NCBI RefSeq assembly: GCF_003334405.1
Contig: NZ_QOWM01000003.1
Length of the DNA: 64,000 nucleotides
Strand: one strand, 5' to 3'
DNA from: Escherichia coli
GTDB taxonomy: Bacteria; Pseudomonadota; Gammaproteobacteria; Enterobacterales; Enterobacteriaceae
Shown here: in pieces, positions 45,502 through 58,163 of the stretch
How the letters are laid out: each line of letters begins with the position of its first letter
Numbering within the stretch: position 1 is the first letter of the stretch
Notes under the pieces: generated by a model
What the model saw: only the letters and a program-made list of their open reading frames with translations
What the model was told of the DNA's origin: nothing
Database searches by the model: none
Program-made: the position numbers and the translations under genes

Positions 45502-47931
45502 ATGACATTAACAAGACGTGAATTTATTAAACACAGCGGTATTGCCGCTGGAGCGCTGGTGGTGACATCGGCAGCACCGCTCCCCGCATGGGCAGAAGAG
45601 AAGGGCGGTAAAATCCTCACCGCGGGACGTTGGGGAGCGATGAACGTAGAAGTGAAGGACGGCAAGATTGTTTCTTCAACAGGCGCGCTGGCGAAAACCA
45701 TACCGAATTCCTTACAGTCTACGGCGGCGGATCAGGTACACACCACGGCGCGTATTCAGCATCCGATGGTGAGAAAAAGCTATCTCGATAATCCACTGCA
45801 ACCGGCGAAAGGTCGTGGCGAAGATACCTATGTACAGGTGAGCTGGGAACAGGCATTAAAACTGATTCATGAGCAACATGATCGTATTCGTAAAGCTAAC
45901 GGACCATCGGCCATTTTTGCCGGATCTTACGGCTGGCGCTCTTCTGGCGTGTTGCATAAAGCGCAAACCTTACTGCAACGTTATATGAACCTGGCGGGCG
46001 GTTATTCCGGGCATAGCGGCGATTATTCAACCGGGGCAGCACAGGTGATCATGCCGCATGTGGTCGGTTCTGTAGAGGTGTATGAACAGCAGACCTCCTG
46101 GCCGCTGATTCTGGAAAACAGCCAGGTTGTGGTGCTGTGGGGAATGAACCCGCTGAATACCTTAAAAATTGCCTGGAGCAGTACCGATGAGCAAGGGCTG
46201 GAATACTTCCATCAGCTGAAAAAATCTGGCAAACCAGTGATTGCCATTGATCCTATCCGCTCCGAAACCATCGAATTCTTTGACGATAATGCCACCTAGA
46301 TCGCGCCGAATATGGGCACCGACGTGGCACTGATGTTAGGGATTGCGCATACCCTGATGACACAAGGCAAACACGATAAAGTGTTCCTTGAAAAATACAC
46401 TACCGGGTATCCGCAGTTTGAAGAGTATCTGATAGGTAAGAGCGATAATACGCCGAAGAGCGCGGTCTGGGCGGCGGAAATTACTGGCGTACCGGAAGCG
46501 CAGATAGTCAAACTCGCTGAACTGATGGCGGCGAATCGCACAATGCTGATGGCAGGCTGGGGAATTCAGCGCCAGCAATATGGTGAACAGAAACACTGGA
46601 TGCTGGTGACGCTGGCGGCGATGTTAGGGCAGATTGGTACACCGGGCGGCGGTTTTGGTTTCTCTTATCATTACTCCAACGGTGGCAACCCGACGCGTGT
46701 TGGCGGCGTGCTGCCGGAAATGTCTGCGGCGATTGCCGGACATGCCAGCGAGGCCGCTGATGATGGCGGAATGACGGCGATTCCTGTTGCCCGTATCGTC
46801 GATGCGCTGGAAAATCCTGGCGGCAAATATCAGCATAACGGTAAAGAACAAACGTATCCGAATATCAAAATGATCTGGTGGGCGGGTGGCGGTAACTTTA
46901 CCCATCACCAGGATACTAATCGTCTGATTAAAGCATGGCAGAAACCGGAGATGATCGTCGTTTCTGAATGCTACTGGACCGCAGCAGCCAAACACGCAGA
47001 TATCGTATTACCGATCACCACATCGTTTGAGCGCAATGACTTGACGATGACCGGTGATTACAGCAACCAGCATATTGTGCCGATGAAGCAGGCTGTTGCT
47101 CCGCAATTTGAAGCGCGTAACGATTTTGACGTGTTTGCCGATCTTGCGGAATTACTCAAACCTGGCGGAAAAGAGATCTATACCGAAGGTAAAGATGAAA
47201 TGGCGTGGCTGAAATTTTTCTATGATGCCGCTCAGAAAGGTGCCCGTGCGCAACGCGTCACTATGCCAATGTTTAATGCCTTCTGGCAGCAAAATAAACT
47301 GATCGAAATGCGCCGCAGCGAGAAGAACGAACAGTACGTTCGTTATGGTGATTTCCGCGCCGATCCGGTGAAAAATGCGCTGGGTACGCCAAGCGGCAAA
47401 ATTGAAATCTATTCAAAAACGTTGGAAAAATTTGGCTATAAGGATTGCCCGGCACACCCAACCTGACTGGCTCCTGATGAATGGAAAGGTACCGCCGACG
47501 AGAAGCAGTTACAGCTTCTGACCGCACATCCGGCACACCGTTTACACAGTCAGCTTAACTATGCGGAACTGCGTAAAAAATATGCGATCGCCGATCGTGA
47601 ACCAATCACTATTCACACCGAAGATGCTGCACGCTTTGGTATTGCGAATGGCGATCTGGTGCGTGTCTGGAACAAACGTGGTCAGATTTTGACAGGCGCG
47701 GTGGTGACTGACGGGATCAAAAAAGGCGTGGTATGCGTGCATGAAGGTGCATGGCCAGATCTGGAAAATGGCTTGTGTAAAAACGGCAGTGCGAACGTGT
47801 TAACGGCGGATATCCCCAGCTCGCAGCTGGCAAATGCCTGTGCCGGTAACTCAGCGTTGGTGTATATCGAAAAATATACGGGCAATGCACCGAAGTTAAC
47901 GGCGTTTGATCAGCCAGCTGTTCAGGCGTAA
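45502..47931 (+). pseudogene. torZ: TMAO/N-oxide reductase TorZ (BisZ) interrupted by two in-frame stop codons
   Basis: Tat signal [17 protein letters not shown] at the start; three same-frame track ORFs (45484-46299, 46312-47466, 47659-47931) are collinear and total 809 codons; internal TAG at 46297-46299 and TGA at 47464-47466. Confidence 0.8.
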
Positions 47932-54357: not shown

Positions 54358-55098
54358 ATGGCAGGTCATAGTAAATGGGCCAACACCAGACATCGTAAAG
54401 CTGCGCAGGATGCTAAGCGCGGTAAAATCTTCACTAAAATCATTCGTGAGCTGGTAACCGCGGCTAAGCTGGGCGGTGGCGATCCGGACGCTAACCCGCG
54501 TCTGCGTGCGGCGGTGGATAAAGCACTGTCTAACAATATGACCCGTGACACACTGAACCGCGCAATTGCACGTGGTGTGGGCGGTGATGATGATGCAAAC
54601 ATGGAAACCATCATCTACGAAGGTTACGGTCCTGGCGGCACGGCAATCATGATTGAATGTCTGTCTGACAACCGCAACCGTACCGTTGCTGAAGTGCGTC
54701 ATGCATTTAGCAAATGTGGCGGTAACCTCGGTACTGATGGTTCCGTTGCCTATCTGTTCAGCAAAAAAGGCGTGATCTCCTTCGAGAAAGGCGATGAAGA
54801 CACCATCATGGAAGCAGCACTGGAAGCAGGTGCTGAAGACGTTGTGACCTATGATGACGGCGCGATTGATGTCTACACTGCATGGGAAGAAATGGGTAAA
54901 GTGCGCGACGCTCTGGAAGCGGCAGGTCTGAAAGCAGACAGCGCGGAAGTTTCCATGATCCCGTCTACCAAAGCTGATATGGATGCAGAAACCGCACCGA
55001 AACTGATGCGTCTGATCGATATGCTGGAAGATTGCGACGACGTGCAGGAAGTTTACCATAACGGTGAAATCTCTGATGAGGTCGCAGCGACTCTCTGA
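54358..55098 (+). CDS. yebC: YebC/PmpR-family transcriptional regulator (246 aa)
   Basis: Translation [31 protein letters not shown]... typical of the YebC family. Confidence 0.93.
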
Positions 55099-55132
55099 TG
55101 AGGCCTGCTAAACAGCAAAACGGAGACGCGTG

Positions 55133-55654
55133 ATGGCTATTATTCTCGGCATTGATCCGGGTTCGCGCGTGACCGGCTACGGCGTCATCCGCCAGGTAGG
55201 TAGGCAACTGTCCTACCTGGGTAGCGGATGCATCCGCACCAAAGTGGATGATTTACCGTCTCGTCTGAAACTCATCTATGCGGGCGTGACGGAAATCATC
55301 ACCCAGTTCCAGCCTGATTATTTCGCCATTGAACAAGTCTTTATGGCAAAGAACGCTGACTCAGCCCTGAAACTGGGCCAGGCGCGCGGCGTGGCGATTG
55401 TGGCGGCGGTGAATCAGGAGTTGCCAGTATTTGAATACGCGGCACGTCAGGTAAAGCAAACGGTGGTAGGTATTGGCAGTGCCGAAAAAAGCCAGGTGCA
55501 GCATATGGTCCGCACCTTGCTGAAACTGCCCGCTAATCCACAGGCGGATGCCGCCGATGCGCTGGCGATTGCTATCACCCACTGCCACGTTAGTCAGAAT
55601 GCGATGCAGATGAGCGAATCGCGGCTGAACCTGGCGAGAGGGCGACTGCGTTAA
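55133..55654 (+). CDS. ruvC: Holliday junction resolvase RuvC (173 aa)
   Basis: Translation [21 protein letters not shown]...; the track ORF starts one codon upstream at a GTG. Confidence 0.93.
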
Positions 55655-55655
55655 G

Positions 55656-56258
55656 TTATACCGCCTCGGTCAGTTCCGGCTGAGGCGTTTCCACTCCCTC
55701 CGCATGAATCAACACCAAACCCGGATGATGCCACAAACTGGCTGGCGTGACGGTTTTACGCTCCCACGGAATAGAACCCAGGAACCAGAATTTCCAGAAA
55801 GTGAGTTTTGCATTCGGATTGCTATTTAACAATTCTCCAAACGTCTCTATTTCACCCACCGGAATACATAGCGCTTCTTTATAAATATCAAAAACAAATT
55901 TTGAACAGAACTGGCGCGAAGATTCGTATTTAAAACCGGTGTGGTAAAGTTTGCGTAGCCGGGAGGGAACCTGTTCAACAATTCGTTGTTTTTGTCGTTC
56001 TGTCAGCCCAGCGTCTAATCGCTTTATAGCATAGCGTTGATTAGACGAACGTTTAATAAAACGAGATAGCGTGGTGATGGTTGAAAGGGGAACCCGGCTT
56101 TCTGCAACCAGGAAGTCTTCACCGTTATGACCGATAATGATCCCGACGTGATTACTCCAGCAATTTGATGCAGCTGATATTTGACCAAATAAGGCAGCAC
56201 CTATACATGTAAAGACGATATCTCCAATTTCATATTCAGCAGGGTAATTAATATTCAC
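55656..56258 (-). CDS. yebB: DUF830 protein YebB (200 aa from a GTG start; longer 233-aa frame possible)
   Basis: Recognised N-terminus (M)[24 protein letters not shown]; AT-rich gene; the track ORF extends to 56357. Confidence 0.8.
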
Positions 56259-56412
56259 GTTGTCATTCCATTGAAATAGATACAAATATACGTAATAGCA
56301 TAAAAAATTTATTTTTTCAGGAGGCGCAATGTATATTTTTATTACGCATTTCTTCACTGAATATGTAATATTAAAATATTTGCTTCCAATATAACCTGTA
56401 GAATAAATTATA

Positions 56413-56428
56413 CTGTGCCATTTTTCAG
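56413..56428. promoter_or_regulatory. LexA (SOS) box 2 of the ruvAB promoter
   Basis: CTGT-N8-TCAG, fitting the CTG-N10-CAG core. Confidence 0.5.
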
Positions 56429-56465
56429 TTCATCGAGACACCTCGCAAGTTTTCTTCATCCTTCG

Positions 56466-56481
56466 CTGGATATCTATCCAG
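56466..56481. promoter_or_regulatory. LexA (SOS) box 1 of the ruvAB promoter
   Basis: CTGGATATCTATCCAG palindrome (CTG-N10-CAG), about 50 nt upstream of the ruvA start. Confidence 0.6.
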
Positions 56482-56532
56482 CATTTTTTTATCATACAGC
56501 ATTATCTTTGATTCATTACGCAGGAGCGTCAT

Positions 56533-57144
56533 GTGATAGGCAGACTCAGAGGCATCATCATTGAAAAACAACCCCCGCTGGTGTTAATTGAAGTGGGCGG
56601 CGTAGGCTATGAAGTGCATATGCCGATGACCTGTTTTTATGAACTCCCTGAAGCGGGTCAGGAAGCGATCGTTTTCACCCACTTTGTGGTGCGTGAAGAC
56701 GCGCAACTGCTGTACGGTTTTAACAATAAACAAGAGCGCACATTGTTCAAAGAGTTGATCAAAACCAACGGCGTCGGCCCGAAGTTGGCGCTGGCGATCC
56801 TCTCCGGAATGTCAGCGCAGCAGTTCGTTAATGCCGTTGAGCGTGAAGAAGTGGGGGCACTGGTGAAACTGCCGGGTATTGGCAAAAAAACCGCCGAACG
56901 CTTGATTGTTGAAATGAAAGACCGATTTAAAGGTTTGCATGGCGATCTCTTTACGCCAGCCGCCGACCTGGTACTCACGTCTCCTGCCAGCCCGGCGACC
57001 GACGATGCTGAACAAGAAGCGGTTGCCGCGCTGGTGGCGCTGGGCTATAAACCACAAGAAGCAAGCCGCATGGTGAGCAAAATCGCTCGCCCTGACGCCA
57101 GCAGTGAAACTTTAATTCGCGAAGCCCTACGCGCCGCGTTATGA
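56533..57144 (+). CDS. ruvA: Holliday junction branch-migration protein RuvA (203 aa, GTG start)
   Basis: Translation [32 protein letters not shown]... matches RuvA; RBS AGGAG. Confidence 0.95.
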
Positions 57145-57149
57145 GGTAA

Positions 57150-58163
<1,014 letters not shown>

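Follow-up and report, generated by a model that had tools for sequence, protein, structure and literature searches.

The closest described relatives of YebB are permuted members of the NlpC/P60 group of papain-like enzymes. The structure of YiiX contains a bound fatty acid and a hydrophobic S1 pocket (PMC3142127), the permuted proteins Tox-Act1 and TseH have phospholipase activity (PMC12994826), and both an acyl-thioester mechanism and the LnsA acyl-transferase system have been described (PMC7387801). The neighborhood of the gene is equally familiar. The LexA site of ruvAB is textbook knowledge, and the ruvA site published in a UV tiling-array study (PMC3009722) is the ruvA-proximal one of the two LexA-like motifs considered here. 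A regulon inference based on expression compendia and a high-scoring site has predicted that yebB is itself a LexA target (PMC2689187).

We analyzed a 64,000-nucleotide stretch of an E. coli genome (contig NZ_QOWM01000003.1), hereafter the window, in which the gene order around yebB is aspS-nudB-yebC-ruvC-yebB-yobI-ruvA-ruvB, that of the E. coli chromosome. The original prediction placed yebB between ruvC and ruvA, and positions 55656-56532 are indeed exactly the ruvC-ruvA gap, with ruvA starting at 56533. This interval very probably holds three known things: yebB, an AT-rich spacer with yobI, and the ruvAB promoter. The features of the locus are as follows.

55133-55654, plus strand: ruvC (ORF list; RefSeq annotation of the identical stretch)
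55656-56258, minus strand: yebB coding sequence, 200 amino acids, GTG start at 56258 (Pfam, NCBIfam, RefSeq, aligned homologue N-termini, AF2, Foldseek)
56259-56357, minus strand: upstream reading frame of 33 codons, from the true start back to GTG 56357, considered non-coding
56260-56286, plus strand: predicted yobI sigma-70 promoter, TTGTCA (56260-56265), 15 nt, TACAAA (56281-56286) (PMC3946193)
56292-56320, minus strand: predicted yebB sigma-70 promoter, CTGAAA (56320-56315), 17 nt, TATTAC (56297-56292) (genomic SELEX, Shimada et al. 2014, PMC3946193)
56329-56394, plus strand: yobI, encoding a 21-aa small protein (RefSeq, in every E. coli record inspected)
56413-56428, no strand assigned: distal LexA-like motif CTGTGCCATTTTTCAG, polymorphic and not conserved outside E. 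coli
56466-56481, no strand assigned: proximal LexA box CTGGATATCTATCCAG, overlapping the ruvA -35 (ruvA LexA motif in PMC3009722)
56467-56495, plus strand: ruvAB promoter TGGATA-17-TATCAT (promoter scan; same hexamers in PMC3946193)
56533-57144, plus strand: ruvA, GTG start (ORF list; RefSeq annotation)

Many RefSeq E. coli chromosomes match the stretch with 100% identity over 961 bases, and the coordinates of yebB, yobI and ruvA are the same in them. In all RefSeq records inspected, the gene, b1862 and formerly orf-23 between ruvC and ruvA, has the product name "YebB family permuted papain-like enzyme". Each of the 5,426 complete E. coli genomes has a match to yebB, with at least 80% query coverage in 5,392. 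yebB is an already annotated E. coli gene for a small putative cysteine enzyme and is ordinary; nothing about it differs from the known YebB. RefSeq, Pfam and NCBIfam already cover the gene as well as the family, start codon and neighbors.

The identification of the gene as yebB (DUF830) and the guess that its product has a permuted papain-like fold are both borne out. DUF830 is now Pfam Peptidase_C92 (PF05708), which matches YebB with E = 2.2e-45 over model positions 3-165 of 166. The NCBIfam equivalog for the YebB family, NF008547, scores 407.6 bits (E = 8.4e-123; cutoff 227), its profile positions 2-204 of 205 aligning to residues 30-232 of the open reading frame. A phmmer search matches the sequence to that of YiiX in PDB 2IF6 with E = 1.5e-17. 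The AF2 model of YebB (pLDDT 90.4) has the same entry as its best PDB match in Foldseek (E = 5e-17, TM 0.82/0.90, rmsd 2.2 Å, 28% identity), followed by 3KW0 (E = 4e-7, 16% identity, TM about 0.6). Alignment to 2IF6 with phmmer, read together with Xu et al. 2011, locates the active site in four codons.

56148-56150, minus strand: His37 (CAC), the catalytic His, aligned to YiiX His49
56100-56102, minus strand: Glu53 (GAA), the third triad residue, aligned to YiiX Glu64
55944-55946, minus strand: Tyr105 (TAC), the conserved NlpC/P60 Tyr, aligned to YiiX Tyr115
55905-55907, minus strand: Cys118 (TGT), the catalytic nucleophile, aligned to YiiX Cys128

By this alignment YebB has the complete Cys/His/Glu triad and the signature Tyr. 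None of the four residues varies among 25 sequences, the most distant at 35% identity, and Cys118 lies within an invariant QFCSKFV motif. Permuted enzymes are recognized by a catalytic His and polar residue that precede the Cys (Xu et al. 2011, PMC3142127), and the order in YebB, His37, Glu53, Tyr105, Cys118, is the permuted one. In the alignment the N-terminus of YebB falls on the beginning of mature YiiX, and it has neither a signal sequence nor a lipobox; because it carries no N-terminal export signal, the protein is predicted to be cytoplasmic. We are confident that YebB is a cytoplasmic, circularly permuted papain-like NlpC/P60 enzyme of the YaeF/YiiX family with a complete active site. 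The PADLOC and PHROGs model libraries, which represent defence and phage families, contain no family that matches it. Among its gene neighbors, no partner conserved across families could hint at a substrate: yebB lies beside a MocR-like regulator and a GNAT gene in Providencia, beside genes for a VanW-like protein, a LysR regulator and a Dyp peroxidase in Proteus, and beside an Na/Pi symporter gene in Budviciaceae.

Judged by its homologues, yebB is translated from GTG 56258. The start had been regarded as ambiguous between this codon and an ATG at 56357. The codon at 56355-56357 in fact reads GTG, as both candidates do, and the ambiguity is gone once relatives are compared. All 15 homologues called at 190-211 aa, which come from 13 genera and mostly begin with ATG, start in the column of GTG 56258, as does one C-terminal fusion call; the three longer calls have N-terminal extensions unrelated to that of E. 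coli. One strain has ATG in place of GTG 56258, and in the first 50 codons 7 of the 12 polymorphic sites are synonymous third positions. The energy of the Shine-Dalgarno duplex is -3.3 kcal/mol at 56258 versus +1.9 kcal/mol at 56357, the latter weaker than in all 64 annotated genes. Because the site at 56258 is no better than one third of random 20-mers, the start call rests on comparison and not on signal strength. The papers we consulted report no experiments on the start site, expression or activity of YebB; the TRAINSPOTTER supplements contain no start-site or N-terminal data for it, and both yebB and yobI are absent from the main text of the Weaver initiation-profiling preprint.

Two alternative views of the protein bear on where it would act. 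In one, the true product is a 233-aa form begun at GTG 56357, whose 33 additional hydrophobic and aromatic residues would serve as a membrane anchor or export signal, comparable to those of the exported YiiX and YaeF. In the window the frame stays open over 57 upstream codons, and it is open in some E. coli lineages as well; N-terminal signal peptides do occur in YiiX and in two deltaproteobacterial homologues, L058 and L060. However, the extension is found in no homologue. Stop codons or frameshifts break it in E. coli N61 and SC455, in L006, in E. albertii and in E1V33. In L002, L006, L007, L045 and L065 the frame ends 4-27 codons up, and the only in-frame upstream start among these is a TTG in L065. 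The extension would also have to be translated from a codon that has no Shine-Dalgarno sequence, antisense to yobI and across the predicted yebB promoter, which lies downstream of 56357, and the NCBIfam profile starts 4 residues before V34. We regard the 233-aa form as close to refuted. The other view would make YebB a peptidoglycan peptidase comparable to MepS, MepH and NlpC, the canonical NlpC/P60 enzymes of E. coli, with which it shares a superfamily and a Cys/His/Tyr active site. This is very unlikely, because YebB has no signal peptide or lipobox and its topology is permuted, and in the solved permuted members the S1 pocket is hydrophobic and fatty acid is bound. Lipids are the substrates of those permuted members that have been characterized. 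Both considerations leave the 200-aa cytoplasmic enzyme as the preferred reading.

The AT-rich space between yebB and ruvA carries yobI and two promoters. yobI, overlooked in the first reading of this DNA, is named 'stress response small protein YobI' in RefSeq; it has a Shine-Dalgarno sequence, AGGAGG, at 56319-56324 (duplex -10.3 kcal/mol) and is intact in E. coli sensu stricto only. The promoters of yebB and yobI, with hexamers taken from SELEX peaks (PMC3946193) and inspection of the sequence, are predicted to be interleaved back-to-back. The predicted yebB promoter is weak, with 8 of 12 consensus matches and a score under the promoter-scan threshold. From yobI to the proximal LexA box runs the most divergent segment (6.7%), and in Salmonella, E. 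albertii and E1V33 the slot is filled by a gene for a 224-231-aa membrane protein. The idea that yobI is a relic of such a gene, since lost, was tried and rejected: the local alignment score was equalled by 12-97 of 500 shuffles and is not significant after multiple tests, and DNA similarity is absent. An Rfam search of 55000-57200 returned no credible match to a structured RNA.

One may speculate that the roughly 190 AT-rich bases from yebB to the conserved LexA operator are an E. coli-specific filling of a space that is taken up by one or two different genes in Salmonella, E. albertii, Citrobacter and others, that yobI arose there de novo, and that yobI transcripts are stopped shortly before the ruvAB promoter by a hairpin resembling an intrinsic terminator, formed from the LexA palindrome and followed by a T7 run. 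If so, the interleaved promoters would make yebB and yobI compete for RNA polymerase, and the operator, being the palindrome of the hairpin, would act both as DNA and as RNA. We consider this unlikely.

The original prediction counted two LexA boxes in this region. Two CTG-N10-CAG motifs are present (56413-56428 and 56466-56481), but only the one proximal to ruvA is conserved. By itself the bare motif is weak evidence, because the window contains 26 copies of it versus 13 expected. The distal motif is polymorphic within E. coli, its CTG half-site being changed to CTC in one O104:H4 strain; the half-site is broken in L006 as well. The proximal box is invariant in all sampled Escherichia, as is everything from there onward to the ruvA start, and it is found unchanged or as a one-base variant (CTGGATATTTATCCAG) in every other enterobacterial genus sampled. 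We take these results to mean that one conserved LexA operator controls ruvAB and probably leaves yebB outside its control.

We also profiled GC and codon composition, as the original prediction had proposed. Its description of yebB as strongly AT-rich holds for the spacer; in the coding sequence the AT-richness is real but moderate, and the last ~100 bases have normal GC. The reference consisted of the 58 other annotated window genes of at least 80 aa, placed by BLAST from a K-12-like record, with small indels in the first ~31 kb. The yebB coding sequence has a GC content of 44.1% versus a mean of 51.2% (sd 3.1, z = -2.3), and its GC3 of 39.8% versus 53.9% (z = -2.56) is the second lowest of 59. 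GC falls to 31-35% in the 5' end of yebB and the spacer, the 274-bp yebB-ruvA spacer itself being at 31%, and in all ruv-linked Enterobacteriaceae yebB is 3-15 GC points below its flanks. Our interpretation, in which we place considerable confidence, is that the gap between ruvC and ruvA is a slot that varies and evolves fast, and that yebB has occupied it from a time before the enterobacterial genera separated.

Two other accounts of the locus would give yebB a different history or a different regulation. Its AT-richness could be that of a transferred islet silenced by H-NS, yebB being a recently acquired foreign or decaying gene. The GC and GC3 values about 2.3-2.6 sd below those of the window genes are consistent with such an origin, as are the deficit relative to the flanks in Enterobacteriaceae, set beside equality with them in Proteus and Providencia, an H-NS flag on the neighboring ruvA-yobI spacer (PMC3946193), the splitting of yebB by IS1 in some strains, and the differences among genera in the genes between yebB and ruvA. 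Escherichia sp. E1V33 has a YebB that clusters with the Pseudocitrobacter vendiensis protein, which suggests one exchange at the slot. However, the order ruvC-yebB-ruvA is common to Escherichia, Salmonella, Citrobacter, Kluyvera, Pseudocitrobacter, Superficieibacter, one Enterobacter and one Klebsiella, and the YebB tree is mostly congruent with taxonomy, which argues against a recent arrival. Decay fits poorly with a gene present in every complete genome, with invariant catalytic residues and mainly synonymous polymorphism. An islet would combine atypical composition, which yebB has, with a recent or patchy presence and with mobility genes, a tRNA or flanking repeats. yebB instead keeps its synteny in eight or more genera, and the convergent ruvC and yebB have stop codons separated by 1 nt, so mobility genes or repeats have no room there. 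A foreign or decaying yebB is, on balance, unlikely, and we retain the long-occupied slot as the preferred history.

Less likely still is membership of yebB and/or yobI in the SOS regulon, with LexA on the two boxes governing both directions from a shared intergenic region. The pair of CTG-N10-CAG motifs points that way, as do the in silico prediction of yebB as a LexA target (PMC2689187) and RNA polymerase SELEX peaks that span the whole ruvA-yebB spacer. The original prediction went further, placing yebB immediately beside the boxes and its upstream region over SOS elements, and neither description fits the map. The yebB start is 155 and 208 bp from the two boxes, with yobI and two divergent promoters between. 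Instead of an operator that overlaps or adjoins the yebB promoter, the nearest motif is the distal one, about 90 bp past the predicted yebB -35 and downstream of yobI. Besides being broken in the two cases above, the distal box is absent from other genera that keep yebB next to ruvA, and yebB is set apart from the box by one or two further genes in Salmonella, E. albertii and others. The text and examined supplements of the UV tiling-array study (PMC3009722) list ruvA and mention neither yebB nor yobI. SOS control of yebB is improbable, and the preferred reading remains a single operator serving ruvAB.

By analogy with YiiX/BcPPNE, LRAT/HRASLS and Tox-Act1/TseH, a chemistry can be proposed for YebB. 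A hydrophobic S1 pocket would hold a fatty-acyl amide or ester, and Cys118, activated by His37 and Glu53, would attack the carbonyl of this substrate to form an acyl-thioester intermediate. Resolution of this intermediate by water or by an acceptor would give amidase/esterase or acyltransferase activity on a lipid-like substrate. The gene is expected to be expressed at a low level because of its weak promoter, GTG start, weak Shine-Dalgarno sequence and poor codon adaptation. YebB would be a reasonable, if unremarkable, target for surveys of lipid-directed permuted NlpC/P60 enzymes in the cytoplasm. For the locus itself the results are corrective: the 200-aa start is now backed by comparison, the link between yebB and the SOS response is weakened, and yobI must be counted in the interval.

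Compared with the systems described for E. coli and beyond, the locus departs little from expectation. In the LexA-regulated ruvAB promoter of E. coli the proximal box, CGCTGGATATCTATCCAGCA, lies over the -35 of TGGATA-17-TATCAT, and the same arrangement is found here; the target is ruvAB, not yebB, and the second, distal motif seen here is not conserved. YebB has the same fold as YiiX (2IF6), the same permuted order with His before Cys and the same four catalytic residues. However, it scores only 79.5 bits on the YiiX equivalog NF007458 (cutoff 216), which sets it apart from YiiX proper, and whereas YiiX is exported by means of an N-terminal signal, YebB has none. Lipid binding is seen in the YiiX structure and is suggested for YebB by analogy. 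BcPPNE (3KW0), LRAT/HRASLS (PLAAT) and the T6SS effectors Tox-Act1/TseH likewise carry a Cys/His dyad in a permuted NlpC/P60 core and use acyl-enzyme chemistry on lipid substrates, but they are distant from YebB, as the 16% identity to 3KW0 illustrates. Unlike the T6SS effectors, which it resembles in this core, YebB has no immunity partner or secretion-system context and is a stand-alone protein encoded in a housekeeping locus.

The window covers the E. coli chromosome from fliC to pyk, and the genes of interest lie in the order aspS, nudB, yebC, ruvC, yebB, yobI, ruvA and ruvB. The RefSeq annotation and matches to Pfam and NCBIfam confirm that the gene between ruvC and ruvA is yebB, as the original prediction had it. 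The features of the ruvC–ruvA interval are as follows:

55133-55654, plus strand: ruvC
55656-56258, minus strand: yebB (200 aa, GTG start)
56260-56286, plus strand: predicted yobI promoter, TTGTCA-15-TACAAA (SELEX-based assignment, PMC3946193)
56320-56292, minus strand: predicted yebB promoter, CTGAAA-17-TATTAC (genomic SELEX assignment, PMC3946193; weak, with 8/12 consensus matches)
56329-56394, plus strand: yobI (21 codons)
56533-57144, plus strand: ruvA

A 961-base query spanning this region has a match in all 5,426 complete RefSeq E. coli genomes; it is at least 80% covered in 5,392 of the 5,426, many at 100% identity, and less than 80% covered in 34. The annotation under every match reads 'YebB family permuted papain-like enzyme', 'stress response small protein YobI', ruvC and ruvA, and yebB, its family, the 200-aa start, yobI and the ruvAB LexA operator are all annotated already. 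An IS1A insertion splits yebB in some complete E. coli genomes (NZ_CP025842.1, NZ_OZ547461.1). The ruvC and yebB stop codons are convergent and only 1 nt apart (window 55652-55692). Within the last yebB codons, which encode a non-conserved C-terminal tail, a 10-bp hairpin (55662-55687) followed by UUUCC may act as the ruvC terminator.

The start of yebB had been considered ambiguous between GTG 56258 and an ATG at 56357. By the minus-strand read and the ORF list, the latter codon (56355-56357) is in fact GTG, and the only in-frame start-like codons are GTG 56357, TTG 56285 and GTG 56258. Fifteen homologues with gene calls of 190-211 aa, which represent 13 genera (Escherichia, Pseudocitrobacter, Citrobacter, Salmonella, Klebsiella, Superficieibacter, Scandinavium, Pseudescherichia, Enterobacter, Providencia, Proteus and Budvicia among them), have their N-termini at the alignment column of GTG 56258, mostly with an ATG codon. 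One C-terminal fusion call begins at the same column, and the extensions of three longer calls are unrelated to the E. coli upstream frame. That frame is closed by a stop 20 codons upstream of 56258 in E. coli N61, 27 in E. coli SC455, 11 at the compared locus L006, and 4 in both E. albertii and Escherichia sp. E1V33; apart from a TTG in SC455, none of these closed frames contains an in-frame start codon. In E. coli UID2309220009, the yebB start is ATG rather than GTG (56256-56258; CAC to CAT on the plus strand), a change that keeps start function. Among eight E. coli sequences, 7 of 12 polymorphic sites in the first 50 codons are synonymous third positions, the pattern expected if coding begins at codon 1. 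The anti-Shine-Dalgarno duplex 5' of 56258 is weak (-3.3 kcal/mol, in the weakest fifth of window genes), and that 5' of 56357 (+1.9 kcal/mol) is weaker than those of all 64 annotated genes. The NCBIfam YebB profile starts four residues ahead of Val34 of the 233-aa long ORF that begins at GTG 56357, Val34 being the codon at 56258, and the SELEX-assigned yebB promoter lies downstream of 56357. Every RefSeq record opened places the start at 56258, and a literature search found no direct experimental mapping of it. The homologue N-termini, upstream stops, ATG variant, Shine-Dalgarno energies and promoter position thus remove the ambiguity and, on sequence grounds, make the choice of GTG 56258 over GTG 56357 and TTG 56285 clear.

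To evaluate composition, 64 annotated genes were placed on the window by BLAST and yebB was set against the 58 others of at least 80 aa. The yebB coding sequence has a GC content of 44.1%, compared with a mean of 51.2% (sd 3.1, z = -2.3), and a GC3 of 39.8% compared with 53.9% (z = -2.56), the second lowest among 59 genes after yecT. Its window-referenced codon adaptation index is 0.633 versus 0.696 (z = -1.45), but GC2 is normal, as is the GC content of the final ~100 bases, perhaps because of the hairpin at 55662-55687. The sliding GC profile reaches its minimum of 31% at 56150-56449, which comprises the 5' end of yebB and the spacer; the 274-bp yebB–ruvA spacer as a whole is also 31% GC. 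Judged from GC, GC3 and the sliding profile, the AT-richness originally predicted is therefore real, being moderate in the coding sequence and strong in the spacer.

The spacer contains yobI, which the original prediction did not mention. This gene has an ATG start and a perfect AGGAGG Shine-Dalgarno sequence (-10.3 kcal/mol) that is among the strongest in the window. The predicted yobI and yebB promoters are back-to-back and interleaved, with the yobI -35 abutting the yebB start codon and the yebB -35 overlapping the yobI Shine-Dalgarno sequence. Among the sampled Escherichia, only E. coli sensu stricto has an intact yobI (8/8, with 5 variable residues); its start is ATA in the cryptic-clade Escherichia sp. 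MOD1-EC7003, a 7-nt deletion removes it at L006, and other genera yielded no homologue. A TraDIS essentiality study recovered very few transposon insertions in yobI (PMC5821084).

The original prediction placed yebB immediately beside two LexA boxes of ruvAB. Both CTG-N10-CAG motifs are present, at 56413-56428 and 56466-56481, but they are 155 and 208 bp from the yebB start, with yobI in between, and the nearer one lies 90 bp or more past the predicted yebB -35. With 26 copies in the window versus 13 expected, the bare motif proves little by itself. The proximal site, CGCTGGATATCTATCCAGCA (56466-56481), overlaps the -35 of TGGATA-17-TATCAT, the region's only consensus promoter, and a UV tiling-array study gives it as the LexA motif of ruvA (PMC3009722). 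The ten Escherichia sequences compared show no change in this box or anywhere between it and the ruvA start, and 14 of 14 other enterobacterial loci examined carry the box, or a version differing by one base, 67-70 bp ahead of ruvA. The distal motif, however, is poorly conserved. Within E. coli, CTGT is replaced by CTGC in five of the ten sequences; the CTG half-site is broken in O104:H4 strain FWSEC0009 (CTC) and at L006 (CAA), and the enterobacterial loci examined outside the E. coli clade have no counterpart. Divergence within the region peaks in the segment containing it (56395-56463), at a pairwise mean of 6.7% compared with 0% from the proximal box to ruvA.

A network-inference paper predicts yebB as a LexA target (PMC2689187). 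Between yebB and the box, Salmonella, E. albertii and others carry one or two additional genes. Because of the geometry, the poorly conserved distal box and these extra genes, we argue that LexA would control ruvAB only, and the proposed link between yebB and SOS control is weakened. At 56465-56492 on the plus strand, the operator palindrome GCTGGAT-ATCT-ATCCAGC is followed by ATTTTTTTA; together they score as an intrinsic terminator, the palindrome plus T7 giving -10.6 kcal/mol (z = -3.6). This predicted terminator could stop yobI read-through just ahead of the ruvAB -10, or the score may be a coincidence of operator plus promoter spacer. The E. coli-limited yobI and the operator-as-terminator are the least ordinary observations made here, but are side issues that we offer as ideas only.

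A synteny scan using one genome per species found 57 loci. The order ruvC–yebB–(0 to 2 genes)–ruvA occurs in Escherichia, Citrobacter sp., Kluyvera, Pseudocitrobacter, Superficieibacter, an Enterobacter and a Klebsiella and, by separate look-up, in Salmonella enterica; yebB lies away from ruv, in genus-specific contexts, in Proteus, Providencia, Budviciaceae and some Citrobacter and Salmonella diarizonae copies. Proteus hauseri has a second yebB, a divergent copy (locus L057, 4026-4561) that is broken into ORFs of 70 and 81 aa and appears to be a pseudogene. The neighbor-joining YebB tree is mostly congruent with taxonomy: Enterobacteriaceae, Budviciaceae and Morganellaceae each form a group. 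Taken with the shared gene order, this indicates that yebB is old in the ruvC–ruvA slot and not a recent arrival. At every enterobacterial locus where it is linked to ruv, the gene has a GC content 3-15 points lower than its flanks; in Proteus and Providencia the two are equal. YebB evolves much faster than its neighbors, with between-genera identities of 70-81% compared with 96-97% for RuvC and 93-98% for RuvA, and no homologue of the first ~190 bases of the spacer is detectable outside the E. coli clade.

The slot itself is plastic. In E. coli, only yobI lies between yebB and ruvA; elsewhere (loci L007, L008, L009, L010, L012, L013, L045 and L062/L063) the gap holds one or two extra, unannotated genes. 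Their products are predicted membrane proteins of 224-231 aa, which fall into two families, and a 274-aa protein whose N-terminus resembles a signal sequence; NCBIfam gave no match for the three representatives tested. YebB of Escherichia sp. E1V33 (L045) is 88% identical to that of E. coli, with RuvC at 100%, and groups by neighbor-joining with Pseudocitrobacter vendiensis (L012); both have the same 274-aa neighbor, which suggests horizontal replacement of slot content. We rejected the ideas that yebB is a fresh island or a pseudogene because it occurs throughout E. coli, with an active site that does not vary and polymorphism that is largely synonymous. Low expression is predicted from the weak promoter (8/12), GTG start, weak Shine-Dalgarno sequence and low codon adaptation. 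The spacer adjoining yebB carries an H-NS flag (PMC3946193), and the AT-rich slot is probably H-NS-prone. The best reading is that yebB is a low-expression accessory gene in a fast-evolving, AT-rich slot. A yebB::Tn mutant of DH10B was among the long-lag-phase mutants in a nanowell screen (PMC5996734).

Elsewhere in the window, torZ (45502-47931, plus strand) differs from a K-12-like RefSeq record by TGG to TAG (W266*, 46297), TGG to TGA (W655*, 47464), T311I and H605R; given the two premature stops, it is a pseudogene in this strain. The first ~1.3 kb (1-1350, the fliC end) is ~88% identical to the K-12-like reference over the aligned part only, compared with 99.6% for the remainder, so the flagellin allele differs in this strain.

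Residues 43-217 of the long ORF match Pfam Peptidase_C92, 'permuted papain-like amidase enzyme, YaeF/YiiX family' (E = 2.2e-45), and by sequence E. coli YiiX (PDB 2IF6, E = 1.5e-17) is the sole relative with a solved structure. YebB is not a YiiX orthologue by score (79.5 bits versus a cutoff of 216). Its His37, Glu53, Tyr105 and Cys118 align with the YiiX catalytic residues His49, Glu64, Tyr115 and Cys128 (Xu et al. 2011, PMC3142127) and are invariant, down to 35% identity, in a 25-member family alignment that takes in Hahella, Methylococcales and Bacteriovoracaceae. His comes ahead of Cys, the circular permutation that defines these enzymes. From the family alignment, AlphaFold2 gave a confident model (mean pLDDT 90.4, pTM 0.87) that is disordered only in its last eight residues, and its best PDB matches are 2IF6 (TM 0.82/0.90, rmsd 2.2 Å) and then the Bacillus cereus permuted enzyme 3KW0, with no further significant structural matches in the PDB. 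The permuted order and these two matches therefore answer positively the question of a permuted papain-like fold.

Permuted NlpC/P60 enzymes with solved structures share a hydrophobic S1 pocket, and the YiiX crystal contains a fatty acid beside the catalytic cysteine, from which its authors proposed fatty-acyl amide cleavage (PMC3142127). The eukaryotic permuted members LRAT and HRASLS are acyltransferases or phospholipases A1/2 that act via an acyl-thioester (PMC3142127, PMC7387801), and two permuted T6SS effectors, Tox-Act1 and TseH, act as phospholipases and need their His and Cys for toxicity (PMC12994826). By analogy, we infer acyl chemistry for YebB: Cys118, activated by His37 that is itself oriented by Glu53, would attack a fatty-acyl carbonyl held in place by Tyr105, and the acyl-enzyme so formed would be resolved by water or an acceptor. 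We found no gene neighbor conserved across families as a substrate clue, and no defense or phage family match in PADLOC or PHROGs. An N-terminal signal peptide is present in YiiX, whose crystallized chain begins at residue 17, and in the distant deltaproteobacterial homologues L058 and L060, but YebB lacks one, and its residues 2-10 match up with the N-terminus of the mature YiiX chain; it is therefore predicted to be cytoplasmic.
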